Positions 41,361 to 56,614 of a stretch of 64,000 bases of DNA are shown one piece after another. The stretch is from Candidatus Enterousia sp. (lineage in GTDB: Bacteria; Pseudomonadota; Alphaproteobacteria; Rs-D84), in NCBI GenBank assembly GCA_045614145.1, contig JAZLCH010000010.1, forward strand, positions 82,489 to 146,488, written 5' to 3'. The notes beneath the pieces are model-generated. The model was not told the DNA's origin, did not search any database, and was given only the letters and a program-made list of their open reading frames with translations. The position numbers and the translations under genes were made by a program. Every line of letters begins with the position of its first letter. The first letter of the stretch is position 1.

Positions 41361-43154
41361 ATGTCAAAAAAAATATACGTGGATGCAGTCCACCCGGAAG
41401 AAACGCGTGTTGTTGTTGTTGATACCGCAACAAATCGTGTTTCGGACTTTGACGTTGAAACCACAACAAAACCTCAGATTAAAGGGAACATCTATCTGGC
41501 CAAGGTTATACGTGTGGAACCGTCGCTGCAGGCGGCATTTGTTGATTATGGAACAGGCAAGAATGGGTTCTTGCCATTTTCGGAAATTCATCCGGACTAT
41601 TATCAGGTGACGCCAGAACAGAAAAAGAAATTATTAGAATTAGCACACGCCAACATTGTTGACGACGACGACGATCCAAATGATGAAGAAGACGAAGTTG
41701 CCGAATACGATGACCACAGTGCCGGCGAAGACAATCACGAATTTACAAAACGCGCACGCGAATTTAAAATTCAGGATGTTATTAAACCAAAACAAATCTT
41801 GCTGATTCAAGGTGTCAAAGAAGAACGCGGCCAGAAAGGCGCATCTATGACAACATACCTGTCGTTGGCGGGGCGTTTTGCGGTCTTGATGCCAAATTCA
41901 CGCAAACGCAACAGCTATGGTATTTCAAAAAAGATTTCCGATAAATCAGAACGCGCACGTCTGCGCGAAGTGCTGCATGGTCTGAAAATCCCCAAGGGGA
42001 TGACCGTCGTTCTGCGAACAGCCGCCATGGGTGCAACACCTGCAGACATTGCAGCAGACTATGATTACCTGGTAAATCTGTGGAATGAAATTCGCAAGAC
42101 AACATTGGCGTCTGTTGCACCGGTAACAATTCATACCGAAGATTCACTGTTGCGTCGTGTTGTCCGCGATTTCCTTAGTGATAAAGAAGATGTTCTAGTT
42201 ATCCAGGGTGAAGAAGCATTTGATGCAGCAAAACAATATTTCCAACAAATGTATGGTCGTGCGCCACGCAAACAGCTGGTTCAATACAAAGACGTCGCCG
42301 TCCCATTAATGGTCAAGGCCGGCGTGGAAAAACAGCTGGAAGGCCTGCATGGCCCATATGTGACATTGCCATCGGGCGGTTCTTTGGTTATCAACCAGAC
42401 CGAAGCAATGGTAACAATTGATGTGAATTCTTCGCGCGCGATTAAAGAAAAAGATATTGAACAGACCGCACTGAACACTAATTTAGAAGCGGCGGAAGAA
42501 ATCGCCCTGCAATTACGCCTGCGTGATTTGGCGGGTATTATTGCGATTGACTTTATCGATATGGAAGAAGAAAAGAACAATCGCAAATTGGAACTGAAAA
42601 TGCGAGAAGTTATGAAACGCGATCGTGCGCGCACCCAGGTTGCGAAAATTAATAACTTTGGTGTTCTGATGTTGTCGCGTCAGCGTCTGCGCAGCAGTTT
42701 TATGGAATCGTCATATGTTGCGTGTCCACACTGTATGGGTGCGGGGGTTGTACCATCTATTCAGACAGCGGCGATTATTCTGTTCCGCCACCTGCAGGAA
42801 AAGCTGTTGGCCAAGGCTGCACAGAAAATCATTATGACCGTACCAACCGATGTGGCGGTATATCTGTTAAATCACAAGCGCACCGAATTGGCCCAGATGG
42901 AAGCTGAATTTGATACAGAAATTGTGATTATTGGTGATGACAGCCTGATGAATATTGACCAATATTCAATTCAGCGTGTTGCGCCAGAACAGAACAAGAC
43001 CGAAGAATTGTTGGGCGCATATGCACCATCAACTGATGCAAAAAAGAAAAACGCCCAGCACATTGATGCAAAAAAGACAACGGTTAACACGCAGCGCCGT
43101 AAACGCAAAAAACAAAACAAGAAAAAGACGTTGTGGCAGAAAATTATCGGTTAA
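41361..43154 (+). CDS. rne: Ribonuclease E/G
   Basis: HPEETRV, KGNIY..V.RVEPSLQAAFVDYG, IDVNS, LRDLAG.I.IDFIDM, CPHC.G.G. Confidence 0.95.
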   Translation: MSKKIYVDAVHPEETRVVVVDTATNRVSDFDVETTTKPQIKGNIYLAKVIRVEPSLQAAFVDYGTGKNGFLPFSEIHPDYYQVTPEQKKKLLELAHANIVDDDDDPNDEEDEVAEYDDHSAGEDNHEFTKRAREFKIQDVIKPKQILLIQGVKEERGQKGASMTTYLSLAGRFAVLMPNSRKRNSYGISKKISDKSERARLREVLHGLKIPKGMTVVLRTAAMGATPADIAADYDYLVNLWNEIRKTTLASVAPVTIHTEDSLLRRVVRDFLSDKEDVLVIQGEEAFDAAKQYFQQMYGRAPRKQLVQYKDVAVPLMVKAGVEKQLEGLHGPYVTLPSGGSLVINQTEAMVTIDVNSSRAIKEKDIEQTALNTNLEAAEEIALQLRLRDLAGIIAIDFIDMEEEKNNRKLELKMREVMKRDRARTQVAKINNFGVLMLSRQRLRSSFMESSYVACPHCMGAGVVPSIQTAAIILFRHLQEKLLAKAAQKIIMTVPTDVAVYLLNHKRTELAQMEAEFDTEIVIIGDDSLMNIDQYSIQRVAPEQNKTEELLGAYAPSTDAKKKNAQHIDAKKTTVNTQRRKRKKQNKKKTLWQKIIG

Positions 43155-43183: not shown

Positions 43184-43420
43184 TTATTTAATTACTGCGC
43201 CTTTGATAAGGGTCAGGTCTTCTTTGATATCGTCTATTTTTATTTGAATTTGCCCGATTCCGGTTTCCAGTATTGTTGTTCGGTTTTCCAGCGATGTTAT
43301 ACGTGTATCAAATGTTTCGTGTTCGGCAACAGATAAATCTTGGCGGGCCGCCCAATAAATCAGCCCACCAATGAAGACTATTAAAAACCAACTGTTGCGC
43401 AGAAATTCTATTGATTTCAT
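43184..43420 (-). CDS. Small TM + coiled-coil protein (holin/hemolysin-like)
   Basis: One TM followed by heptads (RITSLE...IDDIKEDL); ATGA-coupled. Confidence 0.6.
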   Translation of the reverse strand: MKSIEFLRNSWFLIVFIGGLIYWAARQDLSVAEHETFDTRITSLENRTTILETGIGQIQIKIDDIKEDLTLIKGAVIK

Positions 43421-43620
43421 GATTTATCCCCCCTGCCCCGCGCGACCAGTGATAATATCTGGCGCAGGAATGCGCGTTGGGCTTCGGCCCAGCGCAATTC
43501 ATTATCGCTTGCATTTGCCCCCAGGGTGCGTTCAATTGTTATCATGCGCAGGTAATCCAGCACACGCGCGCCGGCGGGCGTTGAAAAGCAACGGGCAAAA
43601 TCTGGTGCAATATCTGTCAT
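43417..43620 (-). CDS. Bbp19-like phage protein
   Basis: FARCFSTPAGARVLDYLR...LRWAEAQR..L.QI, in the usual position after a podoviral portal. Confidence 0.75.
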   Translation of the reverse strand: MTDIAPDFARCFSTPAGARVLDYLRMITIERTLGANASDNELRWAEAQRAFLRQILSLVARGRGDKS

Positions 43621-43623
43621 AGA

Positions 43624-44853
43624 TCACCCCCCCAGCACCGTTTCAGTTGCCGTCATCTGTGCAATCGGTGCAATGTATTTTAATTCGGCATCACCGTTTA
43701 ACTGGATTGGTGCAATCAATCCGCGACGCGCCAAAATCTGTAATCCGCGGTCACACAGTGGGCGAATAAATTCATGCAACAGGCGCCCATATGTCGCACC
43801 CAAGATGCGCATCATGTCGGCATTACGTGCCATGATTTCAGTTGCGGTCATTTCTTTATCAGACAACAGCCCCAGACGGTCTGCCAACAGCGCATGACGA
43901 ATGCGTTCGCGCAGGTCTTTTAATATCAACTGGGACACATCAAAATTCGCACCACTGGTCAATGGTGTCAGACCTGACGAGCCGACAGCCTTTGGTATAA
44001 TTGCGCCTGGGGTCAGGTTAATATTCTGCAGGTTTATAACACCATCATCATCCGCCATCCAAATTCCAGAAACCGCGATTGTCGCGTTTTTCAGGACCAG
44101 TTCAACGACCTTGTTCGCGGTTTTAATATCGGGCAACGCACGCAAGACCGGACCACGACCGTATAGTTCGCCACTGGATACAGACCAACGGAAAATAATA
44201 TATGGATTTGTTTCAAATGTACCCGTTGCAACAATATTATTTTCAATGTCGCCCCCAACATCTAACCAGGCGGTAAATTCAGTACCGACCAGACTTTGCA
44301 CCAATTTCAATGGCGTTTCTGGGTCGCGCTGTATCACATCACGCAGATTGGCAGGCGGGGTCCATGTTGGATATTTTTCCAGTACTTCGCGCGCTGGCAT
44401 TGACGTCGTGTGAAATACTGCATTTGGTAAAATCGCAATGTCTGCCATTGGAATTGCGGTAAATGTAAATGCAGACGATGCGCCGATTGGTGCCTCTGCC
44501 ATGAACAGACATGCTGTCCCCAATATAACCAGGTCCATATAACACTGGTGTATGGTTGTATAAAAATTTGAATCGTTCAGATTTGCACGCAGAACCGTGG
44601 TGGCATAATCTGCGTTTTGCGATAATTCACTTTCACCGACCAGTTGCAGCCACATTGATTCAGGCGGTGTCAACAATGTATAAATAGATGCCGCCAGGTT
44701 ATCTGCCGCGTCGGCTGCGGTTGCATCGTATAATGTCGCCGCATCGTCGTCTGCAGATGGCACGGTATAACGACGCGCCGCATCCCAACGGGCAATCCAA
44801 GGGCTGCGCATGTCCAAGGCACGTTTATACAGGCTTTGTAAATTCTTTTGCAT
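43624..44853 (-). CDS. Head-tail connector (portal), T7/BPP-1 type
   Basis: DATA..AA..LAA.I...LTPP..W, DL..LGTA, RW...GE.YGRGP...ALPDIK, MTATEI..R, LG..YGRL..E.I.PL. Confidence 0.92.
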   Translation of the reverse strand: MQKNLQSLYKRALDMRSPWIARWDAARRYTVPSADDDAATLYDATAADAADNLAASIYTLLTPPESMWLQLVGESELSQNADYATTVLRANLNDSNFYTTIHQCYMDLVILGTACLFMAEAPIGASSAFTFTAIPMADIAILPNAVFHTTSMPAREVLEKYPTWTPPANLRDVIQRDPETPLKLVQSLVGTEFTAWLDVGGDIENNIVATGTFETNPYIIFRWSVSSGELYGRGPVLRALPDIKTANKVVELVLKNATIAVSGIWMADDDGVINLQNINLTPGAIIPKAVGSSGLTPLTSGANFDVSQLILKDLRERIRHALLADRLGLLSDKEMTATEIMARNADMMRILGATYGRLLHEFIRPLCDRGLQILARRGLIAPIQLNGDAELKYIAPIAQMTATETVLGG

Positions 44854-44874
44854 TTATTTTGTCCTTTTGGTTAA

Positions 44875-45723
44875 TTAAACAGAAAAATTTGTATTTGCAG
44901 AAAATGTTTGTATTCCCCTGCCCAGTGCGCGCACAGGCATTGGGGTTTGGGCAATCGCACCCGCCACTGCGTCCAGACCGTCGTCGTGCGTACCATACGC
45001 CCCAACCGGCGACCAGCCCAGCATTTCAGACATCAGTGGCGTGACGCGTGTGCGTTCGTGCGCATACAAGCGGCCGGTGGATAACAGGGGTTCAATAGCA
45101 TCCAGGATTCGTTCATTTTTTGATTTACTGTTCTGGATGCGACAAACATGAATTCGCATACCGTGGCGGGTGGCACAATCGCGCATAATTTCAGGCAACC
45201 CACCACCAATTCCATTCGTTTCGATACAGATTGTATGCAAATTCCGTACACGCATAAATTCCAGCACCATATCACACTGGCGTGATAATGGGAACTGTTC
45301 ACTGTCAGATACAGTCAGATACAAAATATCGTGAACAAAGGCGCGTCGGTTTTTATCGTCACGATACAACAAGACACACGCGCTGCAGTCACGTTTGCGT
45401 TTACCACTGGACGGGTCCCAATACAATGTGACACCTGTTATCAGATGTTCGCCAATTTTCGCACTGCGCGGTTCAAATTCTGTATCGTAAAAATGCACCC
45501 CCCCGGGATCCAGGCGTGCGCGTTCGGGTGATACAAATTCCAGCATCATTTGCGACATAAAATGACGCGCGCCCACAATTTGACGCAAATTATCTATCTT
45601 CTCTGGCGGGAATAGTTCAGGCCAGGCAGGTTCACCGAACGCATTAACTATCGGAATTTTCAACAGTTTATAGCCCTGTAAAAAAGGCGTTGAAAAAGCA
45701 TTTTTTTCATATACCATTGGCAT
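44875..45723 (-). CDS. Terminase large subunit, C-terminal (nuclease) half
   Basis: PAWPE.F, F.SQMM, YWDPS, DCSA, IETNG, K..RI, HDDGLDA; start is ATG 45723 or 45717 (uncertain). Confidence 0.85.
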   Translation of the reverse strand: MPMVYEKNAFSTPFLQGYKLLKIPIVNAFGEPAWPELFPPEKIDNLRQIVGARHFMSQMMLEFVSPERARLDPGGVHFYDTEFEPRSAKIGEHLITGVTLYWDPSSGKRKRDCSACVLLYRDDKNRRAFVHDILYLTVSDSEQFPLSRQCDMVLEFMRVRNLHTICIETNGIGGGLPEIMRDCATRHGMRIHVCRIQNSKSKNERILDAIEPLLSTGRLYAHERTRVTPLMSEMLGWSPVGAYGTHDDGLDAVAGAIAQTPMPVRALGRGIQTFSANTNFSV

Positions 45724-45742
45724 AGAAGTAAAGGAATTTGAC

Positions 45743-47308
45743 ATGGATTTTACCCCCAAAACATTACCCACAAATCTGGAAGCCGAACAGGCCGTGTTGG
45801 CCGCAGTGTTGATGAACAATCGTGCGCTGGAACGCGTGGGCGAATTCCTGAACTACACACATTTTTCACATCCTGCGCACCAGGAAATCTATAAACTGGC
45901 CGAACGTCAATTTGCAGCCGGGATTCCATTTGATATTATTACTGCGAAAAACTATCTGGACCAACAAGGGGTCTTGGAATCGGTTGGTGGCGTTGACTAT
46001 CTGACACAGTTGTCTGGCGCAGGCGCAACAGTTGTTAATGTTGAACAATACGGGCGCATTGTTTATGAACACGCATTGCGCCGCGACCTGATTGCGCTGG
46101 GCCAGGAAATTACAGACAAGGCATTCATCGAAGACCTGGACAATCCGCCATCACGACAAATTGAAATCGCCGAACAAAAACTGTTTGATATGGCGACGAC
46201 AGGTTCATCTGAACGCGAAGTAACACCAATTGCCGCCGCGTTGCAGACCGCACTGAACGAAGCAGAAATCGCGTACAAGGCAGACGGCCAATTATCTGGC
46301 TTAACGACGGGACTGGATGCGCTGGACAAATCAATCAGTGGGCTGCACCATTCGGATTTGATTATTATTGCGGGCCGTCCTGCAATGGGTAAGACCACAT
46401 TGGCAATGAACATCGCGTTTAACGCGGCGAACGCGATTGCATACGGGCGCGCAAACCAGAATTACAAGGGCGCAGTCGTGTTTTTCAGTTTGGAAATGTC
46501 TGCATCCCAGTTGGCGGCGCGTGTGCTGTCTTCACAGTCCAAGGTTCCGGCCAGCGCGATGCGCGAAGGAAATTTAACCGACGAAGATTTCTTAAAGATG
46601 TCACAATATTCTGCCGCCATCGGCAAGGTGCCACTGTTCATTGACGACACGCCCGGTATGTCGGTGCCAATGATGCGTACTCGCGCACGCCGCCTGGCAC
46701 GCAAACACGGTGGAATTGCGCTGATTGTTATTGATTATCTGCAGTTGATGACATCACCCGGTGGCAAGCACAGCGACAACCGCGTTCAAGAAATTTCTGA
46801 AATTACCCGTGGTCTAAAAATGCTGGCCAAAGAATTGGATGTACCGGTGATTTCACTGTCACAGTTATCACGCAGTGTGGAATCGCGTGACGATAAACGA
46901 CCAATGCTGTCAGATTTGCGTGAATCTGGGTCTATTGAACAGGACGCGGACATTGTTATGTTTACATATCGTGAAGAATACTATCTGCAAAATCGCGATC
47001 CATCTGAACGCCTATCAAATACGACCAATAACGCAATGGTTGAATCATGGCAGAAACGATACGAACGCGCCAAGGGCAAGGCTGACATCATCATCGGCAA
47101 AAACCGTCACGGCCGTCCTGAAACAGTGCGCACCGCCTTCTTTGGCGATTACAGCTTGTTCGATAATCTTCCAGAATTTGAATCATATGACGACAATGAA
47201 TTCGCCCAACCTGCCCCGACTGTTTCTACGACCAATCTGAACAGCGATGCAGATTTTGCCCCAACCGCAATTAATCCTGATGACATTCCAGACGATATGC
47301 CATTGTAA
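45743..47308 (+). CDS. dnaB: Replicative DNA helicase
   Basis: NLEAEQAVL, AGRPAMGKT, FFSLEMS, IDYLQL, SQLSR, SDLRESGSIEQDAD, KNRHG. Confidence 0.98.
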   Translation: MDFTPKTLPTNLEAEQAVLAAVLMNNRALERVGEFLNYTHFSHPAHQEIYKLAERQFAAGIPFDIITAKNYLDQQGVLESVGGVDYLTQLSGAGATVVNVEQYGRIVYEHALRRDLIALGQEITDKAFIEDLDNPPSRQIEIAEQKLFDMATTGSSEREVTPIAAALQTALNEAEIAYKADGQLSGLTTGLDALDKSISGLHHSDLIIIAGRPAMGKTTLAMNIAFNAANAIAYGRANQNYKGAVVFFSLEMSASQLAARVLSSQSKVPASAMREGNLTDEDFLKMSQYSAAIGKVPLFIDDTPGMSVPMMRTRARRLARKHGGIALIVIDYLQLMTSPGGKHSDNRVQEISEITRGLKMLAKELDVPVISLSQLSRSVESRDDKRPMLSDLRESGSIEQDADIVMFTYREEYYLQNRDPSERLSNTTNNAMVESWQKRYERAKGKADIIIGKNRHGRPETVRTAFFGDYSLFDNLPEFESYDDNEFAQPAPTVSTTNLNSDADFAPTAINPDDIPDDMPL

Positions 47309-47323
47309 TTTATAATTATTTTC

Positions 47324-47370
47324 TTGCACCAGATGGATAAATTAACTATTATTTTGTCAAGAAATAGTTA
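47324..47370 (+). promoter_or_regulatory. Sigma70-like promoter with overlapping inverted repeat
   Basis: TTGCAC-N17-TATTAT (47324-47352); TAACTATT-N12-AATAGTTA (47343-47370). Confidence 0.55.
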
Positions 47371-47384
47371 TTTAGGAGTTGCAC

Positions 47385-48392
47385 ATGGCCCAAGAAGAAA
47401 TTATTTTTCCAAATAATATCCGTAACATACGTTTGGCAAACGGCATGAAAATGACAGAACTGGCACGCCAGACGGGTTTATCATTATCTGCTGTTTCAAA
47501 AATTGAAAAGGGTGTACGACGTCTAAATCAGAAACAACTGTTAAACATTTGCAATATTTTAGGTTGTAAATTGTCTGACATTTTCATCAAAGAATCTGAT
47601 GACGTTGCCAATCAATGGCAATCTGAAATCAAACGTCGCCTGAACGACAACGAAAACAGCGGCCTAAAGGTATTTGGCAGTGGTCTGCGCAAAATTCGCC
47701 AACAATCAGGCAAGACAATTGCCCAGGCGGCCAAAGAAGCCGGAATGACACTGTCTGTTTATCATAAAATCGAGGTCGGACAACGTGAAATATACAAAAA
47801 CGAAATCGAACCATTGGCAAAATCATTTGCGTTGGGCGCCGAAGATCTGTTTGACAAAATTGCAAACCTGTACAAATCCGGTGAATTAAATAAGCATATC
47901 AGCAAGGTAAAAGAACGTGTTAAATCCGTTTTAATACCTGGGAACCCATTGTCTGGCATCGATATGCACGGCAGCCTATATGGTGCAAAACTGTACGACA
48001 GCGCACGAAAAAAACTGGTTCCTGTATTTGGTACCCCATCTGGCAAATCAATCACATTTAAGAAATCAGACAAAACAATGATTGTTGCTCCAATGCCCCT
48101 AGAAGGTCGCGCTGGCATTTATGCGGTAATACCAAACACAAAACGTCTGGGCGGCATAATTCCTGAAAAATCATATATTTTTGCCGATGCGCTGACCCCT
48201 GCACAACCAGGCGACATGGCGGTATGCATTGATACAGATTTTGACATCCTGGACAACGACACAACCATCAATGCCCAGGTTGCCATCATCCGCCAGGATT
48301 CCAAAGGCAACATTTACGGCCACGTTTCAGGTCCTGACGAAAAAATAACCGCCCAAACAATGCACAAAGTTGTAATGATTGTTATGAAATAA
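47385..48392 (+). CDS. Tandem XRE-HTH regulator with degenerate S24/CI-like C-terminal domain
   Basis: Two Cro/CI HTHs (IRNIR..GM...LARQTG.S...SKIEKG; LRKIR..GKT...A...G.......IE.G); VPVFG...YAV...P.QPGD C-domain. Confidence 0.8.
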   Translation: MAQEEIIFPNNIRNIRLANGMKMTELARQTGLSLSAVSKIEKGVRRLNQKQLLNICNILGCKLSDIFIKESDDVANQWQSEIKRRLNDNENSGLKVFGSGLRKIRQQSGKTIAQAAKEAGMTLSVYHKIEVGQREIYKNEIEPLAKSFALGAEDLFDKIANLYKSGELNKHISKVKERVKSVLIPGNPLSGIDMHGSLYGAKLYDSARKKLVPVFGTPSGKSITFKKSDKTMIVAPMPLEGRAGIYAVIPNTKRLGGIIPEKSYIFADALTPAQPGDMAVCIDTDFDILDNDTTINAQVAIIRQDSKGNIYGHVSGPDEKITAQTMHKVVMIVMK

Positions 48393-48425
48393 ACCATTCA
48401 TTTCACCCCCAGGAGAGAGACTAAC

Positions 48426-49064
48426 ATGAAAGCAAAAATCAGAACAACCGCACAAAGATTATTAAACCTGTACCGCCAAGAACATGTAATTATTGGCGGT
48501 TGGGCGACCATAAATCCTATATTTATAAATGACGCAACCGACGACGTCATTTCAGAGCTGAAAGACATGCCAACAGGCCCATCCCTGATTCAGCATATTG
48601 AAAATCTGCGCAGCGGAAAAACCCCAATGGATTCAATTGCGCGTGAATTATTGCCATATGGTGGCATGATGACAGAATCAATTGCATCAATAAACCTGAC
48701 TGACGGCGAATTGCATGAACTGCAACACACCATTGACCAATTTACCCCTGACCAATCAGGACTAAACATGTTTCTGGCCACGCCAATTGTTCGTAAATTT
48801 GGCGAAGAATGGCCATCAGCTATTCGTTCTATAATTGACAATCATCCACAAATGCTGGCCAAATGGGATATAATTAAACAAACATATGACGCATACAGAC
48901 TGTGGGATTCTGCAAACGAAATTATTTCAAACCCTTTGTCTGAACGCGCCCGGGCACTGGTTCAATCTGACATGCCAGATTATGAAACATACCTGCCAAA
49001 ATTTGGGGTTCAGGGTATTGAATTACTGGAAAAACTGCGCACATTTGTCAGCACACTGAACTAA
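48426..49064 (+). CDS. Hypothetical protein
   Basis: 212-aa ORF, AGGAG RBS; its stop overlaps the stop of the TerL N-half. Confidence 0.8.
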   Translation: MKAKIRTTAQRLLNLYRQEHVIIGGWATINPIFINDATDDVISELKDMPTGPSLIQHIENLRSGKTPMDSIARELLPYGGMMTESIASINLTDGELHELQHTIDQFTPDQSGLNMFLATPIVRKFGEEWPSAIRSIIDNHPQMLAKWDIIKQTYDAYRLWDSANEIISNPLSERARALVQSDMPDYETYLPKFGVQGIELLEKLRTFVSTLN

Positions 49065-49666
49065 TCTTCATTCGTTGTACGATATATCGTATCATGTGCA
49101 TGCGGCGTACCAATATAAATCATTGTGCCGTTTGGCGACAAAATAAAGTCCAATTCACGCAGTCTTTCACGCAACATCTCGCGTTTTTGCGCAGTATTGG
49201 TTGTATTTGGCACTTCGACATCATCACAGATTATTAAATCCGCGCGCATTCCTGTAATATTACCATGAATACCCTGGCATATGACAGACGGTTCACGAAT
49301 TCCAATTGGCCGATTTATAGTTATGCGTCCGCACGCCCATTCTTTTTTATTTGTCGGGATTAAATCTGCACACCATGGGTGATTTTCCAATATATGACGA
49401 ACATGGGCAACCATACGCGATGCCAAACTGTTTTCTGCCGACAAAATTAATATACGTGTTTCAGGATACATATACAGCACACACGCAACAAAGATACCAA
49501 CAACCGTTGACTTACCAGAATGCCGAAACGCCATTAACAAACCACGATGCGGTGTTTTTTGCCAGACATCTACTAAAAAAGCCATAATTTTTTTATGATG
49601 TACCGGCGTTTTATATCCCAAGACCCGATTCCATTCATCCAAGAAACTATAATACCCCGTAATCAT
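49061..49666 (-). CDS. Terminase large subunit, N-terminal (ATPase) half
   Basis: LMAFRHSGKST (Walker A), ILILSA, ITGMRADLIICDDVE (Walker B), IYIGTPH (coupling motif), then stop. Confidence 0.9.
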   Translation of the reverse strand: MITGYYSFLDEWNRVLGYKTPVHHKKIMAFLVDVWQKTPHRGLLMAFRHSGKSTVVGIFVACVLYMYPETRILILSAENSLASRMVAHVRHILENHPWCADLIPTNKKEWACGRITINRPIGIREPSVICQGIHGNITGMRADLIICDDVEVPNTTNTAQKREMLRERLRELDFILSPNGTMIYIGTPHAHDTIYRTTNED

Positions 49667-50198
49667 CGGTATTTTCGTTTTCTGCAGCATCTGTGATATA
49701 CCCATAATCATTTATTAAATTTGGCAATGCGTTTTCCAAAACCGTTAACAAATTACGATACAGTCCCAAAACTGCCCCGCCCGACAATTTATCTTCTATG
49801 ACTGCCCGAGTATAATCAATCAGTGATTTAATATCATCATGACGATTCACCCATTCATTTATGTCAATATCAACTGACCGCAAATCTTGAAATGCCGCCA
49901 GCAAGAAATTAAAATCAGAATTCAAATCTTCCGGATCTATTTTTTTAGTTGGCTGATAATCAATTGTGCGCTTCAATGCGATTTGTCGAAAGATATCAAT
50001 TTTTGTATCTTCAATCGGCGCATCATCAAACACGACGTTACCACCCGAAAAATTTTCATTAGGCAACACCGAAAAAACATACCCACTGTCCCCAATCAAA
50101 CCGTTTATCGCGACACGAACATCTGCGACCTGGAAAAACGGGAAAGAGAATGCAAACTCTGTTGTTGCCCCATCTGCAACATAAGATATTTTATACAT
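49647..50198 (-). CDS. Short T7-type tail fibre N-terminal (adaptor) domain protein
   Basis: YVADG.T.EFAFSFPFF...DV.V, IFRQ....R..DY, LN.DF; only 183 aa. Confidence 0.78.
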   Translation of the reverse strand: MYKISYVADGATTEFAFSFPFFQVADVRVAINGLIGDSGYVFSVLPNENFSGGNVVFDDAPIEDTKIDIFRQIALKRTIDYQPTKKIDPEDLNSDFNFLLAAFQDLRSVDIDINEWVNRHDDIKSLIDYTRAVIEDKLSGGAVLGLYRNLLTVLENALPNLINDYGYITDAAENENTDDYGVL

Positions 50199-50217
50199 AA
50201 CACCGCCCCCATATAAA

Positions 50218-50565
50218 TCAACCCACAATTTCATCAAAACGCGCCAGCAACGATTTCAGTAAATTTGGTTTCTTTGCACGCGTTTTACTTAATTTATCCA
50301 GATTTTCGCGACGTTTCTTGTCATACGGCGCTGCCGTTTCTGCCTTCATACGTTTTAAGACAGCTCCTTCAGTCATGCCAGCACTTGACATACCTGACGC
50401 CCCATATTTTGCACGCTGACTGGCCAGAACTTTTTTTATCAGATTTGTTTTTTCTGCATCATCTTCAGCCATTTGTTTCAATATTTCCTGACGTTGTGTC
50501 TTGGCTTGTTTTTTATCTTCTTTATAATCCAACAGATCAGTTACATCAGATACTATTTGTCCCAT
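50218..50565 (-). CDS. Small internal-virion-like protein
   Basis: QRAKYGASG motif; position after tail tube B. Confidence 0.6.
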   Translation of the reverse strand: MGQIVSDVTDLLDYKEDKKQAKTQRQEILKQMAEDDAEKTNLIKKVLASQRAKYGASGMSSAGMTEGAVLKRMKAETAAPYDKKRRENLDKLSKTRAKKPNLLKSLLARFDEIVG

Positions 50566-50600
50566 ATCAATATTCCTTTGGTAAAAAAAATATATAAAAG

Positions 50601-52316
50601 TTAAACCGAATACCACCCATGCATTGTGACCGACAGAACCGTAACCGGTTCAGCATCTGTCCCATGAATTGTCCACAGTGGCTTTATGCAATCATGTGTT
50701 GTTCCCAACAGATTTATCGATACATCGCCACAATATCCAGAACTGCCATCAGAATAAATTTCATTTGGCAAATTTATACGATATGAATTTATATGAATCG
50801 ACTTTGTATTAATAACACGTGCGACTAATTTACGCATTTTCACACGCACTGCGCTGTGCCCTGACGATTGCAGTGGCAAACCGGACGCAACATATGAAAA
50901 ATTATATTGTCCACAATCAATCAATTCTGATTCTGAAAAACGTTCCAAGAACACACCATTATTACGATGTGTAACAACGTATGTCACGCCCGCTGACACG
51001 ACTACGGACAACACTTGCCCTGCGGTTTTATATTTTCCCCATGCGGACACGCCCAGTCCAGAATTATGATTTAACACCGAAATCGAACCATCATCACATA
51101 CAACATACAGACGACGGAATGACGAATTGTACGCCATATCAATTGGCCTATTAATCAGATGTCTAGAAAATGCACACAAGTCATTTGCGCTGTAATTTTC
51201 CCCCAGCGCATCCAACCCCAATTCACGAATGTCATCCCCTGATGCAGATACAAATACTGTCGTCCCTTCTATCTTTTGTGGTGGCAAGAAATATTCAGAA
51301 TACGATCCAACTGCTGTATGCTGCTTTACATCTACCGACGAAGGGGTCAAAGGCTTGCTTGAAATTGCCCATTCACCAACACTGGTCAGGATTTGTAAAT
51401 TATCACTGCTGACAATTGTACAAATTTGTTGACGCTTATGCGATGACAACGACACAAATATTGCTTCATCGTCCAAGCCTGTGCCTATATTAAAATTATT
51501 ATGTCGTCCAACCTGTGACATCCAAATACCATTTGGCCAATCACGTGAACCACCAAAGACCAAACGATCTTGATGAAAAGTGATACTGCATGGCCAACCG
51601 CGCCGCATTCCAAACGCCGATTCGCGCCAATCAGAAATACTGCTTGATGGAACCGAATACGTTCCATTTGTATGCGCAACGATTTGTGTTGGGCTGATAT
51701 ATTCATATATATACCATTGACGTTCTAATAAATACAACCGTCCCCCCACGTTATCAGGCGTCCAATAATCAGAACTGGCTGTAAATGTTGCAAAATTGTT
51801 CCCATTTGAATTTGTTGTCACAGCAATCGTTATGTCTGCAGAATCGTCAAATCGCACAAATGGCATATTCAACGTCATATCAAAATCATTACGCGCGAAT
51901 GCGAATTCAGATATTGTAAAATATTCCCCCGTATGCTGCAAAACCTGGGGCGGGTAATCAGGATGAACAAATATCATTATTCTGGACTGTTGGGCATATT
52001 GCACCTGCGCCAGGTCAGAATACGACCATGGCGTCCGCAGGTCTTGTATATGTTCTGTTCCATGAAAAACATGCATATGGTTTTCAGTTAATGCAATAAC
52101 ATACTCGGACGAATCTACCCCAGAAAACGATACCAAACGCGCCACATTTGGCAGTTTATAAACCGACTGCAACCCCATTCTGCGCGCCAATCCACCACCT
52201 GGCAACACATCCATATTTTCTAGTTTACACAGACCATTAATATTATCGTGTGCATAGAATTCCGGGGCAACTTCACCATTTGCAAAAGAGTTTTGTGTTT
52301 TTATAAAGTTTGCCAT
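50601..52316 (-). CDS. Tail tubular protein B (nozzle)-like
   Basis: QNSFANGEVAP, GG..RR.G, VHPDYPP, GWP....FHQDRL.FGG, GLDDEAI, T..GEW. Confidence 0.85.
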   Translation of the reverse strand: MANFIKTQNSFANGEVAPEFYAHDNINGLCKLENMDVLPGGGLARRMGLQSVYKLPNVARLVSFSGVDSSEYVIALTENHMHVFHGTEHIQDLRTPWSYSDLAQVQYAQQSRIMIFVHPDYPPQVLQHTGEYFTISEFAFARNDFDMTLNMPFVRFDDSADITIAVTTNSNGNNFATFTASSDYWTPDNVGGRLYLLERQWYIYEYISPTQIVAHTNGTYSVPSSSISDWRESAFGMRRGWPCSITFHQDRLVFGGSRDWPNGIWMSQVGRHNNFNIGTGLDDEAIFVSLSSHKRQQICTIVSSDNLQILTSVGEWAISSKPLTPSSVDVKQHTAVGSYSEYFLPPQKIEGTTVFVSASGDDIRELGLDALGENYSANDLCAFSRHLINRPIDMAYNSSFRRLYVVCDDGSISVLNHNSGLGVSAWGKYKTAGQVLSVVVSAGVTYVVTHRNNGVFLERFSESELIDCGQYNFSYVASGLPLQSSGHSAVRVKMRKLVARVINTKSIHINSYRINLPNEIYSDGSSGYCGDVSINLLGTTHDCIKPLWTIHGTDAEPVTVLSVTMHGWYSV

Positions 52317-52328
52317 TACCACCCCCAA

Positions 52329-52847
52329 CTAATATCGTGCAGAAATTAAAGAAAATTCTTTGATTCCATCATTTACCCCAGACGATGCATCTAAAAATTT
52401 TGCTGTCTGTAATTCTGTTTCATACAATGCGACCAACATACGAAACACGGTCTGGTCACCCAGCAACGGGACACAAAATTCCATTGCTAAACGTGTTGCA
52501 GCCAACGATATAAAATACGCTGGAAAATTATCAGGTGCAGTACGAACCAGCGCAGTAATTTTCACCGTTTCCGCATCCGAGAATATTCGATTTCCAACAA
52601 TACGTCCCGACGTATTCAAGACGCGCAACACATTTGATGGCAATAAAAAATTACCGTCTGTATTACGTACCAATTCGATATCATATGTTGCAAATCGCCA
52701 TGGATAGATTGCAACTAATGCATCAATGACAGGCTCAAAAAGTGTACGCGACAATTTTGCTGCCGCGCTGTCATCTGTCAAAGACTGAATTGGTTCTTCG
52801 CCCAATTTTAATAGCGCCATGGAACACAAGTCTATTTTAGTAAGCAT
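52329..52847 (-). CDS. Tail tubular protein A (gatekeeper)-like
   Basis: IDLCSMALLKLGEEPI.SL, YPWRFA, LP...LRV, FPAYF. Confidence 0.85.
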   Translation of the reverse strand: MLTKIDLCSMALLKLGEEPIQSLTDDSAAAKLSRTLFEPVIDALVAIYPWRFATYDIELVRNTDGNFLLPSNVLRVLNTSGRIVGNRIFSDAETVKITALVRTAPDNFPAYFISLAATRLAMEFCVPLLGDQTVFRMLVALYETELQTAKFLDASSGVNDGIKEFSLISARY

Positions 52848-52864
52848 TTTTGTTCCCTTTGTGT

Positions 52865-52898
52865 AAAAAAAAATGGCCGGCAAAATACAATACCGGCC
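52865..52898 (-). terminator. Intrinsic terminator between capsid and tail genes
   Basis: GGCCGG-N12-CCGGCC followed on the minus strand by a U-tract. Confidence 0.55.
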
Positions 52899-52916
52899 TG
52901 TATTAATACGTTATAT

Positions 52917-53150
52917 CTATGCCAATGCAATCGTTGTGACATTCAATTCTGTCACATTAATTTTCTTAATTGCGGTATTATCAGATGCATTAATAATGAT
53001 AATATCGCCAATGTTCATCAATGTTTTTACATTGTTAAAATAACCATTTACCGTTATTGTTGACAATGTTTCAGACGCGCTGCTGTAATGCCACAATGTA
53101 AAACCGTTTGCATATGCAATGACGGATAAATTTTTATTCTGAAAAGCCAT
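52917..53150 (-). CDS. Small conserved phage-type protein after the capsid gene
   Basis: LSVIAYANGFTLWHY...GYFN...GDIII; AAAGGA RBS. Confidence 0.75.
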   Translation of the reverse strand: MAFQNKNLSVIAYANGFTLWHYSSASETLSTITVNGYFNNVKTLMNIGDIIIINASDNTAIKKINVTELNVTTIALA

Positions 53151-53194
53151 ATTTTTTCCTTTTGATTAAAAATGTTTATATTGTGAACTTAAAT

Positions 53195-54019
53195 TTATGC
53201 ATTTACGCCATCTGAACACTTAACACGAACAATACCATCACCATCGATCAGCACTGCCCCCTGTGACATACTGTTGCTGATAAAGTGCGCTGCGCGTTCG
53301 CCATGCCATGAAATATCCGATTTAACTTCTTGACCACACGCATGCCCTATGCTGGACGCATGATAGATAAAGCAATCACGATTCTTATCAGATACCGGCA
53401 GACCATTATGCAACACCCATGTTATACCCAACCATTTGCGTGCTTCAAAACCGTTTACCAATGGCGAATCGGTTACATAATCCGCGGACACAAATTCATC
53501 CATTGCCAACAGTTCGTTCCACTGATGCACACCAACAACCGCAAAGCGACGACCATCATCTGGGACATCATTTGTATTCAATACTTCCAGTGCATTCAAC
53601 ACCAATTCCTTGGTCAGGCCGGTTGTATAATCACCGACATTTGCTGTTGCGGTATTCATTGCAGAAATAATTAATTCATCTGTTTTACGCCCCAGCGCAT
53701 ATGCACCAGCAGATGCAACGACACGACGTTCATCAATATTTGTTTTTAATTCATCCAAACTATCGACCCAATCACCCGCATAATAATCCATCAGCAAACA
53801 TTCCACTGGTTCATGGTTTAAATTCATTACTGGAACAATACCATGACGTGATTTTGTGCTGGCTGTGCCACGCCCAACCTTTTGGAACGTGGTCGATGCA
53901 CCAATCACACCCGATTTACTGCGAACCGTCGAACGCAGTTTTGTCCCCATCTGCTGATACGCCAAATGAACATCAGCTTCAAATTGTTTTACAAATACAT
54001 TGTCTATGGAAACAGACAT
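53195..54019 (-). CDS. Major capsid protein (T7/BPP-1-like)
   Basis: FVKQFEADVHLAYQQMGTKLR.TVR, D.LDELK, A.ALGRKTD..II, DVPDDG.R, WLG..W. Confidence 0.9.
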   Translation of the reverse strand: MSVSIDNVFVKQFEADVHLAYQQMGTKLRSTVRSKSGVIGASTTFQKVGRGTASTKSRHGIVPVMNLNHEPVECLLMDYYAGDWVDSLDELKTNIDERRVVASAGAYALGRKTDELIISAMNTATANVGDYTTGLTKELVLNALEVLNTNDVPDDGRRFAVVGVHQWNELLAMDEFVSADYVTDSPLVNGFEARKWLGITWVLHNGLPVSDKNRDCFIYHASSIGHACGQEVKSDISWHGERAAHFISNSMSQGAVLIDGDGIVRVKCSDGVNA

Positions 54020-54133
54020 ACAAAAATCCTTTGGTTAAAAATTAAATTGAATTTTGTATTTTGGTTATGCAACTAAATGCGCCATAAAAACAAAAGTTAA
54101 AATTGGGTCTGCATTTTTGTACAGATTATCCAT

Positions 54134-54203
54134 AAAAAAATATCAGTCAGACTGTGCACACTCATCTGACTGATACTTAAAGAAAAACCCCGCATTTGCG
54201 GGG
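54134..54203 (-). terminator. Two terminator-like hairpins upstream of the capsid gene
   Basis: TATCAGTCAGA-N13-TCTGACTGATA (54141-54175) and CCCCGCA-TT-TGCGGGG (54188-54203), each followed by a U-tract on the minus strand. Confidence 0.65.
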
Positions 54204-54210
54204 AATTATA

Positions 54211-54402
54211 TTATTTCTTTTTACAACATTTTTTTGCAGGCGCTTTTTTTGCAACTGACTTCACAGCTACTTTTTTAACTGCAACTTTTTTTGCTGCTGG
54301 TTTTGCTGCAACTGCTTTTTTGGCAGGTGCCTTTTTTGCAACTGGTTTTTCAACTGGCTTAACCGCCTCTACCTTCTTAGATTTTCTAAAGAAAAATCCC
54401 AT
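54211..54402 (-). CDS. Small Lys/Ala/Pro-rich histone H1-like protein
   Basis: KKAPAKK repeats; AAGGAG RBS. Confidence 0.75.
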   Translation of the reverse strand: MGFFFRKSKKVEAVKPVEKPVAKKAPAKKAVAAKPAAKKVAVKKVAVKSVAKKAPAKKCCKKK

Positions 54403-54512
54403 CCTTTCTCTCCTTTTACTACGTTCTGTGACAGAACAAATTCGTTTTGTTCTTGCTTAATATTTTATCATAAAACATAAATCCTAGTAAAGAAGAAAAG
54501 TTAAATTTTACA

Positions 54513-55169
54513 CTATGAGTATAATTTTTTAAATCCGTTTTCAATTTTTCGAATATATTCTGCATCACCATCGCGCCAATATTTTGGATCACGCATCATA
54601 CGACGCAAATCAGAATCAGATAAATTTTTTTCAGACGCCCCATCTATCTGCACATCAGGTTCCATTGATTGCATCATCTTATAAATACTTTGAATTCCCT
54701 GGGGTGTAGTACACAATTCGTCATATGCATCACGTGGCAAGAATCGTTCACCAAACGCATTTATTGCCCGCAATGCATCGCTCATTTTTTCATCACCGCC
54801 GAAAAAATTTTTCAATTCATTAATTGCACTGTCTTCATCACGCACAGAAAATAAATCTGAAATTATCGGGGATAGAAATTCATTTGCGATATCGTAAATT
54901 TTTTCTACCTGATTACAGGTTAATCCAATTTGTAAAAATTTTTCACGCAAATTTTCATCATCATACAATTCATTTATTGGATATTCAGACGCATTCACCG
55001 GCACCCCAATTGCACGATTAAATTTTTGACGTGTCGCCTCATCAGAATCAGATGTTGGAACACTGATCATGCCACCTATTTTTTTCTCTAATTCAGAATA
55101 AGATTTCATCAGTGCCGATGCGTTTAATGTTCCATCGTCCTTTAAAAATTTTTCTGGGATATTATCCAT
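54513..55169 (-). CDS. Capsid assembly scaffolding protein
   Basis: IPEKF....L.KSYSELEKK N-terminus; LR.MMRDPKYW.......IENGFKKLY C-terminus. Confidence 0.85.
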   Translation of the reverse strand: MDNIPEKFLKDDGTLNASALMKSYSELEKKIGGMISVPTSDSDEATRQKFNRAIGVPVNASEYPINELYDDENLREKFLQIGLTCNQVEKIYDIANEFLSPIISDLFSVRDEDSAINELKNFFGGDEKMSDALRAINAFGERFLPRDAYDELCTTPQGIQSIYKMMQSMEPDVQIDGASEKNLSDSDLRRMMRDPKYWRDGDAEYIRKIENGFKKLYS

Positions 55170-55170
55170 T

Positions 55171-55368
55171 TTATTTTCCTTTGTCTTCATTTGATTTGCG
55201 CAGGAAATAAATTCCTGCAAATGTACAAACAGATTGCAACATAACAAACAAATCTGAATCACCGGCCAAATACGCCCCAATTGCAGATAAAATGCCAGTT
55301 GCAGAAATTATATATGTTCGATATCCCGCCAGATATCCACCACGTACAATATTCTTCATTGCTATCAT
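55171..55368 (-). CDS. Small two-TM holin-like protein
   Basis: GYRTYI + two hydrophobic segments + FLRK; adjacent to the hydrolase. Confidence 0.6.
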   Translation of the reverse strand: MIAMKNIVRGGYLAGYRTYIISATGILSAIGAYLAGDSDLFVMLQSVCTFAGIYFLRKSNEDKGK

Positions 55369-55372
55369 CCAT

Positions 55373-55783
55373 TTATAAATAAAACAGCATACCGTCTATA
55401 TCGGCGATATATCCGCGCGCACGCGCCCAATCAGGCATAACATCAGCATGATGAAATCGCGACGCACCATAACAGGCATCGTTTAATCCACCACACAGCA
55501 TACGCTTTGCTACGCGCAAACACATTTGATACCCACGGTTCATTGGCTGCACATACATGCGTTCATGACGACAAGATTTTTCAGACAACGCATTGAAAAT
55601 ATTTTCATCTGATATCAGATCTGAAAAACATCTGCCAGATACATCTGCCAAATTTTTTATCATTGATGTTAATGCCTCGACCCCACGCAAAGATTGCGCA
55701 CCACTTTCCGCATACACAATCCGTGCAATTCTATATGCCACCCCTGCGGACATGTCCGTGTTACGTATCAGTTCAAGATTCAT
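55373..55783 (-). CDS. Cell wall hydrolase (SleB/Hydrolase_2-like)
   Basis: ARIVYAES, GA..FH...V.PDWA, IDG.LFY. Confidence 0.78.
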   Translation of the reverse strand: MNLELIRNTDMSAGVAYRIARIVYAESGAQSLRGVEALTSMIKNLADVSGRCFSDLISDENIFNALSEKSCRHERMYVQPMNRGYQMCLRVAKRMLCGGLNDACYGASRFHHADVMPDWARARGYIADIDGMLFYL

Positions 55784-55800
55784 GAATTCCCCCCTGGGTA

Positions 55801-55913
55801 TAAAAAATCCCCATGTGAAATACATGGGGGGTAAAAAAAATCCACACGCAAATGTGGATACAATCTGTCATGTTTATGTCTCACATACTAGCATATTTTC
55901 ATAAAAAAGTCAA
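55801..55913 (-). promoter_or_regulatory. Promoter of the phage-like operon followed by two tandem terminators
   Basis: TTGACT (55913-55908)-N17-TAGTAT (55890-55885) with extended TG; hairpins ATCCACA/TGTGGAT (55840-55859) and CCCCATGT/ACATGGGG (55809-55829), each with a U-tract, before the first ATG. Confidence 0.65.
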
Positions 55914-55948: not shown

Positions 55949-56614
55949 TCACACACTTATTTCATCACCATAGACCAACAAATATCGTGTATCGCGGCGC
56001 AAGACCAACGCCCCATTTTCATTTATTCCGACCAATGTCGCAACCTGACCCTGATATCGCACAGGACAATTCAGACAGGCCGCCAATTCCAACCATCTTT
56101 CCCGTACTGCGCGAAAATCTGCACAACGCCATTTGTCCAAATTTCGCATTAAACGGTTCAACAATGCCTCTAATGGTACATCCGAATAATTATCCATCTT
56201 GGTCGTCTTATATCGATCGACCGTTGGATTAGATTTTACATTTATCCCAATCCCAACAATAACGAATCGCCCAGAATATTCAATCAAGGCCCCCGAAATC
56301 TTTTTTCCATCCACCAATATATCATTTGGCCACTTAATCGTTGGATGAATTCCAAACGAAGCAATTGTTTCTGCCACCGCGACCGCCACCGCATAGGCCA
56401 TACGCGCATCACGTTCCGGGCAATCATAAATAAAACTGACATACAAATTTCCATGATGAGACACCCACGGTCGGCGAAAACGTCCACGACCTGCCGACTG
56501 GGCCAAGGCCCAAATCGCCGTATGGTCACGCCCCCCACCCTGTGCAATCAGTTCATGCGCATAATCCTGGGTACTGGGGATTTTATCAAAAGAAACCAGT
56601 TTATAATTTGCCAA
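55949..56614 (-). CDS. birA: Biotin protein ligase (no HTH)
   Basis: STQD, QSAGRGR..R.W, IKWPNDILVDGKKISG.L.E, GIGIN. Confidence 0.95.
   Translation of the reverse strand: MANYKLVSFDKIPSTQDYAHELIAQGGGRDHTAIWALAQSAGRGRFRRPWVSHHGNLYVSFIYDCPERDARMAYAVAVAVAETIASFGIHPTIKWPNDILVDGKKISGALIEYSGRFVIVGIGINVKSNPTVDRYKTTKMDNYSDVPLEALLNRLMRNLDKWRCADFRAVRERWLELAACLNCPVRYQGQVATLVGINENGALVLRRDTRYLLVYGDEISV

Follow-up and report, generated by a model that had tools for sequence, protein, structure and literature searches.

A vertically inherited podovirus-type particle gene cluster, proposed to be domesticated and probably similar to a gene transfer agent, in Candidatus Enterousia and related Alphaproteobacteria

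The gut bacterium Candidatus Enterousia sp. (genome 0.90 Mb, 96.7% complete) carries a cluster of phage-type genes on the minus strand at positions 43184–55825 of the stretch analyzed here, which comprises 64,000 nucleotides of contig JAZLCH010000010.1 (positions 82,489 to 146,488) and is called the window below. Gilroy et al. (2021) treat Candidatus Enterousia as equivalent to Rs-D84, the GTDB designation of genus, family and order alike. The cluster lies in two blocks between the host genes rne and birA. We propose that it is a domesticated, vertically inherited podovirus-type particle system which probably acts in the manner of a gene transfer agent (GTA). Kogay et al. (2022) give criteria for a GTA (viriform), and judged by those which are open to inspection in a sequence, a selected set of head, motor, tail and lysis genes without apparent self-mobility and with chromosomal descent bears the signature of a GTA. 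The production of particles, random packaging, lysis of the producer and DNA uptake by a recipient are predicted from these genes.

The cluster genes are arranged in two units (Table 1). Unit 1 (block B), running from 55825 to 49061, starts with a cell-wall hydrolase, the small gene g65, the scaffold, a Lys/Ala-rich protein, the capsid and g77, followed by tail tubular protein A, the nozzle, the internal protein g132, a tail-fibre stub and the N-terminal half of the large terminase subunit (TerL). Unit 2 (block A), from approx. 45744 to 43184, consists of the C-terminal half of TerL, the portal, a Bbp19-like gene and g78. Between both blocks, three genes are found on the plus strand, namely dnaB, a gene with a double helix-turn-helix (HTH) domain and a gene of 212 amino acids (aa). 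The latter two accompany dnaB and are syntenic across genus and family; dnaB itself is the sole match to DnaB_C above the cut-off in the genome. The matches to PF12236, PF05396, PF19821, phrog_394, phrog_376 and NF033889 identify a T7-type morphogenesis module. Searches of the open reading frames (ORFs) of the cluster against Pfam and PHROGs detected no integrase, no adjoining replication gene and no RNA polymerase, and the ORF set is neither that of an autographivirus nor that of a complete T7-like phage. Nor does the locus have the build of an inducible prophage, as no integrase gene is nearby and dnaB splits the cluster; att repeats had no dedicated search. Six integrase matches exist in the genome, the nearest of which (16307–16747 and 20801–21292) lie in a separate AT-rich island more than 21 kb from the cluster. 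The GC content of the two cluster parts is 47.8% and 39.6%, compared to 42.9% for the genome and a mean of 43.9 ± 3.6% for its long ORFs; the base composition of the cluster is thus within approximately one standard deviation of that of the long ORFs. In these respects the original prediction, which had been made from the letters of the window and had described a miniaturised podovirus-type virion operon as a candidate GTA, was confirmed: the genes it listed are present as co-oriented open frames between rne and birA, their composition is host-like, and an integration or replication module is not among them.

The cluster is widely retained. All 24 congeners that were sampled yielded a portal gene, as did 12 of 16 genomes from the rest of the order. 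A capsid gene was found in 275 of the 301 surveyed genomes of the order, all of which are 0.5–1.3 Mb in size (210 of 223 when only genomes at least 90% complete are counted). Gene order, including the dnaB insert and the birA-g139-g81 side, is the same in 9/9 full loci of the genus, throughout the fetched part of a tenth locus and in 4/4 loci from other genera of the family. For a test of the reading frames, 69 further congeneric loci were used (65 distinct ones after dropping four duplicates). The best 80 loci from a search of genome contigs were all within the genus. Each cluster gene that was found forms an open frame with at least 85% query coverage, with at most one locus as an exception. 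Full-length frames were present in 69/69 loci for capsid, TerL_N, nozzle, tubular A, g77 and hydrolase, in 68/69 for scaffold and g65, in 67/67 for TerL_C and in 64/64 for the portal, where the totals on the portal side are lower because the loci were cut 10 kb on either side of the capsid gene. The ratio of non-synonymous to synonymous substitution rates (dN/dS; median of pairwise Nei-Gojobori (NG86) estimates for pairs with 0.05 < dS < 1.5) ranges from 0.08 to 0.34 over the cluster. The lowest values belong to portal (0.08) and capsid (0.09), followed by TerL_N (0.14), g77 (0.16), nozzle (0.20), TerL_C (0.21), tubular A (0.22), scaffold and g65 (0.23 each) and hydrolase (0.34). Host genes in or beside the cluster gave 0.09 (dnaB), 0.11 (double-HTH gene), 0.20 (birA) and 0.35 (g139). 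Taken over all pairs, the median dS is above 2 for the majority of genes; since the frames are still open, the cluster has been kept far longer than neutral decay would permit. Capsid identity of the study genome to the other families of the order is 66–73%, compared to 47–56% for RpoB and 41–56% for DnaB. We conclude that the cluster is not a decaying prophage.

Co-divergence with the host was assessed in 30 genomes. Six belong to the genus; the remaining 24 represent other families, ten within the order and 14 in the wider class. The host tree was built from two genes, RpoB and DnaB (1609 columns), and the element tree from capsid, nozzle, both TerL parts, tubular A, portal, scaffold and g77 (2082 columns). 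Both trees have 17 of 27 splits in common when calculated with FastTree and 18 of 27 with IQ-TREE in its -fast mode, while 2000 label shuffles yielded at most three. Among the common splits are the separation of the order from the rest, family groupings inside the order and several pairs at the class level. Patristic distances of host and element are correlated with r = 0.94, a value not reached in any of 5000 permutations (Mantel test), and the element evolves at about 1.5 times the rate of RpoB/DnaB. Thus, the element is mostly inherited vertically and has diversified together with its hosts, which is one of the viriform criteria. Synteny and tree congruence, the two tests that the original prediction had proposed, thus speak for it, and the congeneric loci showed no pseudogenes. 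This supports phage-derived particle genes that are inherited vertically and kept by the host. In some close relatives, however, the cluster has been lost cleanly. On the whole, its interpretation as a GTA is partly supported, with GTA activity, i.e., random packaging and transfer, standing as a prediction.

The element is not restricted to the order. When 401 genomes from across the class were searched, the capsid was matched at E ≤ 1e-5 in 96, and 61 of 397 genomes outside the order (sizes 0.9–6.6 Mb) had a capsid match of 50–66% identity. All 14 class-level loci that were fetched contain a single compact cluster with the order portal, Bbp19-like gene, scaffold, capsid, g77, tubular A, nozzle, small internal protein, fibre, lysis genes, TerL and hydrolase. 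Two bounded cases measure approximately 14–17 kb, and a LexA-like repressor lies at one end. In one of them (genome G410), the element of about 14 kb is situated between pyrD and the repressor, carries a holin and an endolysin, and is flanked by host genes for a HAD hydrolase and a GGDEF protein on one side and for NUDIX, MFS and HAD proteins and lysyl-tRNA synthetase on the other. The copy in G390 ends with a gene matching the Pfam family GTA_holin_3TM (2e-12). In both G410 and G390, the element is flanked by host genes wherever a family was matched. The tested ORFs of elements and flanks included neither an integrase nor a replication gene; three of them, on the left side of G390, had no family match. 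Named carriers are Azospirillum, Skermanella, Indioceanicola, Telmatospirillum, Oleisolibacter and Shumkonia. In one family of bacteria with large genomes and a free-living habit, 60 of 81 genomes have the capsid, and its presence follows the clades (20/20 in genus g85, 15/16 in another genus, 0/10 in genus g336). Nearly all carriers have a single copy. The Enterousia cluster is a rearranged member of a compact element that is spread over many alphaproteobacterial families, and so is not peculiar to one lineage. As a separate observation, pyrD (dihydroorotate dehydrogenase) lies beside the hydrolase end in G410 (L043:10732-11862), and a homologue is found in four further class-level loci from different families, which hints at an old common insertion site.

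Of 50,697 phage records, the one with the most similar capsid, leaving aside one scaffold, is Pelagibacter phage EXVC031P (44% identity). This podovirus of 34 kb is the closest true phage. It resembles the cluster in portal (32%), Bbp19-like protein (46%), scaffold, capsid, g77, tubular A, nozzle and the N-terminal fibre domain, all in the same order. However, it has a full 34-kb genome with many early genes and two ORFs of 783 and 1247 aa downstream of the nozzle, and its terminase does not match that of the cluster at E 1e-3. The excepted scaffold (locus L036, MT838907.1) is a 5-kb sequence from human faeces with 51% GC, filed as “UNVERIFIED: Bacteriophage sp.,” with a capsid 63% identical to that of the cluster. 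Its genes follow the class-level order (portal, scaffold, capsid, g77, tubular A, start of nozzle), and it may be DNA of a bacterial carrier which was filed as phage.

A peculiarity of the order is the terminase. The claim that all genes are intact holds insofar as every frame is open; TerL, however, consists of two genes, which in Enterousia are 3.2 kb apart with dnaB and its two companions in between. TerL is a single frame in 14/14 class-level loci. Five other families of the order are represented by ten loci; in all ten, the N-terminal part is a separate ORF (171–213 aa), and the C-terminal part (265–357 aa) is present in nine of them, the tenth having the N-terminal half only. The halves are located side by side with a gap of 170–380 nucleotides (nt) in three families, and in a fourth the C-terminal part directly follows the portal. 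An alignment of five split pairs (the study genome and one locus each from four other families) with four single-chain relatives placed the cut at the same site in all five pairs, a few residues past the GTPH motif. In the study genome, Walker A, Walker B and the GTPH motif are found in the N-terminal half and the acidic nuclease motifs in the C-terminal half; the catalytic motifs are retained in all five aligned pairs. As the cut is at the same place across families, the split is old, shared and tolerated, and it is ancestral to the order Rs-D84. In the family of Enterousia, the halves were parted later by dnaB and its companions. A split intein joining the halves was considered and rejected, since only a few residues follow the last ATPase motif in the N-terminal half, which leaves no space for an intein part. 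Genes of approx. 150 aa beside TerL_C in other families were also considered as small terminases and rejected, as they are type IV pilin-like. A natural division of a terminase into the ATPase core and the rest, kept across families, offers a ready-made experiment on how packaging motors are constructed.

We suggest the following origin and mode of action. A T7-like temperate phage would have entered an early alphaproteobacterial lineage and would then have been passed on with the chromosome. The cluster would be read as two units, unit 1 from behind a conserved hairpin, and a fraction of the cells would express both. Scaffold, capsid and portal would build a procapsid, and the two TerL chains would jointly form the packaging motor, which, as no small terminase is recognisable, is proposed to start on cellular DNA. 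Adaptor, nozzle, internal protein and fibre stub would close the head, and the hydrolase together with membrane proteins would lyse the producer. Since large ejection proteins of the T7 type are missing, the DNA is proposed to reach only the periplasm of the recipient and to be taken up from there via ComEC and DprA, as described for RcGTA. ComEC and two DprA genes are indeed retained in the 0.9-Mb genome, but these are common genes and prove nothing.

A number of observations weigh against such a GTA-like system. Neither a small terminase nor large internal core or ejection proteins were recognised among the cluster ORFs in Pfam and PHROGs, and a candidate small gene upstream of the class-level TerL has no detectable homologue in the study genome. 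When the element alignment is constrained to the host topology, it is rejected by the approximately unbiased (AU) test (difference in log-likelihood 102, p = 0.0004). Well-supported conflicts between the trees concern a few free-living taxa at the class level and the placement of one genome of the order, so that some transfer or recombination, and hence exchange, is likely among the free-living carriers of the class. Further, several proteins are truncated. The portal is approx. 100 aa shorter at its C-terminus (relatives 483–587 aa), and the fibre is reduced to its N-terminal domain (196 aa vs. 216–771 aa in relatives); this stub was found in 46 of the 69 congeneric loci, was not detected in 23, and was missed by tblastn in two of the nine full genus loci (L014, L017). 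The nozzle is shorter as well (575 aa vs. 625–768 aa). The label “miniaturised” is thus only partly apt. It fits portal, nozzle and fibre, but the capsid gene has the same length as that of the 34-kb phage EXVC031P; gene length is therefore no guide to head size, and nothing here indicates a head too small for the element’s own genes. Finally, the cluster is dispensable. A capsid was not found in 13 of the 223 high-quality genomes of the order. In the congener G078 (97% complete), both phage blocks are gone without fragments, and G098 and G100 have dnaB but no cluster beside it. G078 keeps dnaB with its two companions in place and also birA-g139-g81, so g81 and the double-HTH gene outlast the cluster and no dedicated regulator is established. 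In G136 and G201, dnaB is missing along with the cluster, and these absences are probably assembly gaps. Between the 212-aa gene and birA, G078 has about 3.9 kb of other sequence (L218, G078:C14:1-20000).

Some of these points would suit a selected particle with a use other than gene transfer, such as killing of or interference with competitors or related phages, DNA release that serves nutrition or biofilms, or an interaction with a eukaryote that hosts these gut bacteria of reduced genome. The signs of selection would be the same for it, as they are silent on the cargo of the particle. The fibre has lost its receptor-binding part, its stub was not found in 23 of the 69 loci, and ejection proteins are lacking; repurposing has also been raised by George et al. 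(2022) for RcGTA-like heads in endosymbionts. On the other hand, both the ATPase and the nuclease motifs of TerL are kept at the low dN/dS of its halves, and so is the portal. DNA packaging itself therefore seems to be under selection, and ComEC and DprA are retained besides. In addition, we know of no killing particle built on a podovirus. We regard such another use as rather unlikely.

A still self-transmitting element, i.e., a small temperate podovirus or a satellite that tracks its hosts closely, is improbable in our view. It would explain the compact class-level copies with a LexA-like repressor and a lysis cassette, and the conflict with the host tree in the AU test; a head like that of the pelagiphage could hold the entire element, and vertical descent with patchy persistence is described for temperate alphaproteobacterial podoviruses by Hardies et al. 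(2023). It is contradicted by the ORFs of G410 and G390, in which (apart from the three unmatched ones) neither integrase nor replication gene appeared, by the single copy in nearly all genomes and by a presence that follows clades. Within the order, moreover, genes lying in two blocks around dnaB, or around ftsZ in sister families, cannot leave as a unit. The same arrangement, with host flanks and with host genes interleaved in sister families, shows the genes fully endogenised over several loci, as is often the case in GTAs. A slowly decaying relic of an old prophage without present function could account for the split TerL, the shortened portal, nozzle and fibre, the interleaved host genes, the lack of a recognised small terminase and the loss of the cluster in some species. 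Yet 69 loci contain no broken frame despite saturated synonymous sites, dN/dS is low throughout, the capsid is more conserved between families than RpoB, the cluster is retained in the small genomes across the order, and loss, where it occurred, was by clean deletion rather than decay. We consider a relic hardly credible.

Compared with known systems, the Enterousia cluster shares with RcGTA (Rhodogtaviriformidae) a phage-derived set of head, tail and terminase genes in Alphaproteobacteria, vertical inheritance under purifying selection, the absence of integrase and replication genes and loss in some lineages. The class-level copy in G390 even contains a gene of GTA_holin_3TM, a Pfam family named after GTA release. 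However, RcGTA is siphovirus-like with an HK97 capsid (Pfam Phage_capsid) and its function is proven, whereas the Enterousia cluster, a T7-type module, is known from its genes alone; the RcGTA-type capsid (PF05065) has no match in the study genome at its given completeness. BaGTA of Bartonella (Bartogtaviriformidae) is likewise a domesticated phage cluster of host-associated Alphaproteobacteria that diverges with its hosts, as described in Guy et al. (2013) and a 2025 preprint. It is set apart by published gene lengths (portal 1863 nt, terminase 1344 nt), and those descriptions link it with replication of the run-off type through a dedicated module and with a Q-like antiterminator, neither of which was seen at the Enterousia cluster. 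FpGTA of Faecalibacterium is another GTA-like element of a gut bacterium with podovirus-like morphology (Borodovich et al., 2026); it belongs to Firmicutes and was demonstrated by sequencing of packaged DNA, and the comparison here is by description only. The particle genes of Rickettsiales and Holosporaceae reported by George et al. (2022) are under purifying selection in reduced genomes and of doubtful function, but they encode RcGTA-type heads with tails missing, while Enterousia has another phage type and keeps adaptor and nozzle. A further case is “Prophage region 2” of Candidatus Hepatincola porcellionum, a reduced alphaproteobacterial genome. According to PMC9992710, its ten genes include tubular protein A, capsid and head-tail connector, and it occurs in all three strains without attachment sites. 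The authors treated the region as an incomplete prophage; judged by gene names only, it is probably the same element.

Our literature search turned up no paper in which the element is presented as a GTA or as a unit with vertical inheritance. Taking the argument further, we tentatively suggest that the element could be a third, ancient, podovirus-type GTA lineage in Alphaproteobacteria beside RcGTA and BaGTA, which would predate the split between Azospirillum-like bacteria and Rs-D84, would have been inherited with the chromosome since then, would have acquired a two-chain terminase in Rs-D84, where its genes have become interspersed with core cell-cycle genes (dnaB in Enterousia, ftsZ in sister families), and might, through its LexA-like repressor, be a source of the inducible particles of Azospirillum. 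Strains of Azospirillum lipoferum and strain B510 release particles with random 10-kb pieces of host DNA upon mitomycin treatment, according to Wisniewski-Dye et al. (2012; PMC3899980), who cite Boyer et al. (2008) and assign the particles only tentatively to RcGTA-like genes. The element with its LexA-like repressor could be an alternative source. The original Azospirillum work reportedly found siphovirus-like particles, which would speak against the element as their source. GTAs are one of few cases in which a virus was turned into an organelle-like tool of the cell, with a handful of independent origins known, and a different phage type appears to have taken this route here. The element has been kept across an order whose more than 300 species have genomes of 0.5–1.3 Mb, in which useless DNA is quickly lost. 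Its presence in cultured free-living relatives such as Azospirillum opens the idea to testing at the bench, and part of the bacterial DNA in virus-like-particle fractions from the gut could come from such elements.

Table 1. Features of the particle gene cluster and its surroundings in the window.
Feature	Position	Strand	Match or remark
rne	41361–43154		Flank; RNase_E_G, 7e-85
g78, membrane-anchored coiled-coil protein, 78 aa	43184–43420	−	Weak PHROG “hemolysin” match, 0.0025
Bbp19-like small phage protein	43417–43620	−	PF25181, 8e-10
Portal, T7 gp8 type, 409 aa	43624–44853	−	Head-tail_con (PF12236), 7.6e-83
TerL C-terminal half (rest of ATPase domain and nuclease)	44875–45819	−	termin_lrg_T7, best at positions 333–500, 6e-27
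dnaB	45743–47308	+	DnaB_C, 9e-100; host gene, outside the particle set
Double-HTH gene (337 aa) and 212-aa gene	47379–49064	+	HTH_3 in two copies
TerL N-terminal half (ATPase core), 216 aa	49061–49711	−	NCBIfam termin_lrg_T7 (NF033889), positions 4–192 of 500, 5e-65
Tail-fibre N-terminal (tail-binding) domain, 196 aa	49647–50237	−	PHROG tail-fibre families, residues 17–119 only
g132, homologue of small internal virion protein, 132 aa	50218–50616	−	Matches a gene of G410
Nozzle (tail tubular protein B)	50601–52328	−	phrog_376, 1.3e-81
Tail tubular protein A (adaptor)	52329–52883	−	phrog_394, 4e-29; Pfam Tube match weak
g77, conserved 77-aa protein after the capsid gene	52917–53150	−	phrog_18004, 2.6e-12
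Major capsid protein, 274 aa	53195–54019	−	Phage_capsid_2 (PF19821), 1.1e-71
Lys/Ala/Pro-rich repeat protein, 63 aa	54211–54402	−	Histone H1-like composition; Pfam HC2 match weak
Scaffold	54513–55280	−	Phage_T7_Capsid (PF05396, T7 capsid assembly protein), 6.9e-8
g65, hydrophobic protein, 65 aa	55171–55368	−	Holin-like by position and composition only
Cell-wall hydrolase, endolysin-like	55373–55825	−	phrog_938 endolysin, 1.4e-7; Pfam Hydrolase_2 below cut-off
Terminator-like hairpins with T tails	55809–55859	−	Between birA and the first cluster gene
birA	55949–56614		Flank; host gene
g81, HTH protein, 81 aa	57120–57365	−	Remnant N-terminal domain of the element’s CI/LexA-like repressor

Several of the particle genes deserve comment. 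The annotated frames of two genes are probably too long: homologues of the scaffold align from about residue 37, placing its likely start at a Met near 55169, and the C-terminal half of TerL probably starts at an internal Met near 45744. The TerL halves were the only genes to obtain a name in the NCBIfam search. Capsid and scaffold have a lower median dS (1.39 and 1.06) than all other genes of the region (>1.6, mostly >2), which may reflect selection on synonymous sites, e.g., for codon use in expression or for RNA structure. The gene g77 is also found in pelagiphage EXVC031P and in the class-level loci, and is followed by a hairpin (52898–52875). The counterpart of g132 in G410 matches phrog_418 “internal virion protein” (8e-7). 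The Bbp19-like gene comes after the portal in relatives at the order and class levels, too. The name Bbp19 derives from the Bordetella phage BPP-1, and a link to Bartonella through this name was rejected.

The Lys/Ala-rich gene and the HTH gene g81 were missing from the original prediction. In 65 of 66 distinct loci of the genus, scaffold and capsid have an ORF rich in Lys and Ala between them, with 63–159 aa among the 40 loci listed; the number of repeats varies within the genus, and the gene is absent from class-level copies. Its product might bind DNA inside the head. A homologue of g81 adjoins the portal in opposite direction in nine of the ten class-level windows that include the portal. 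In five listed class-level loci, g81 matches the N-terminus of a protein of 208–218 aa, and the full-length version in G410 has a Peptidase_S24 (LexA/CI-like) domain (9e-26). Among the genes predicted to take part in lysis, the hydrolase is the first gene of the structural unit in Enterousia and is located after TerL in the class-level loci. The gene g65, which had been called holin-like, does have hydrophobic stretches but no family match in Pfam or PHROGs. The gene g78, at the end of the portal unit, is full-length in all 47 congeneric loci that reach it (dN/dS 0.16) and is possibly a lysis accessory. The 212-aa gene and g139 matched no family in the Pfam and PHROG searches. A hairpin with T tail at the junction of birA and the cluster was found in 64/64 genus loci, compared to 47 of 640 shuffled controls. 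It may mark the end of the birA transcript or, by analogy with BaGTA, may gate entry into the cluster.

Compared to the class-level copies, the portal pair in the order has been relocated to follow TerL, with host genes in between. In three sister families, the only ftsZ of the genome is located directly upstream of the portal on the same strand (L023:5999-7750, L024:4792-6312, L025:4428-6011, and others), and genes for an ABC-F ATPase, an AmiC-type amidase and type IV pilins are also interleaved. Genes of the pilin-like type adjoin the C-terminal half of TerL in several sister families (L023:13938-14402, L024:8073-8543) and have homologues elsewhere in the study genome (C5:110606-111064, C7:44339-44803). 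For the two genes which precede the portal at the class level, possible relocated homologues were detected at C2:25029-25373 (33% identical, E 9e-15) and, weakly, at C5:122520-122882 (E 4e-5); neither these nor the class-level genes matched a family in the Pfam and PHROG searches.

The position of ftsZ in sister families leads to a side observation. FtsZ/tubulin (PF00091) has no match in the study genome, in 61 other genomes of the family that are at least 90% complete (0/54 in the genus) or in the single genome of family f4, whereas it was found in 12/13 genomes of f3, 2/3 of f2, 1/1 of f5 and 1/1 of f6. The study genome does encode MreB (C5:92551-93546, 2e-138), and its matches to the FtsA family are MreB and one frame of 596 aa. 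The family of Enterousia may thus divide without FtsZ. In this family, dnaB occupies the neighbourhood in which sister families have ftsZ by the portal.

Two further features of the window are separate from the cluster. The AT-rich island at 10000–31000 has a GC content of 36.6%, compared to 42.9% for the genome, and contains two genes of the integrase family. On the other side of birA, the minus strand carries an ORF of 1692 aa (57910–62988) with a repetitive body rich in Gly, Asn, Val and Thr, which by eye resembles a surface or autotransporter-type protein.

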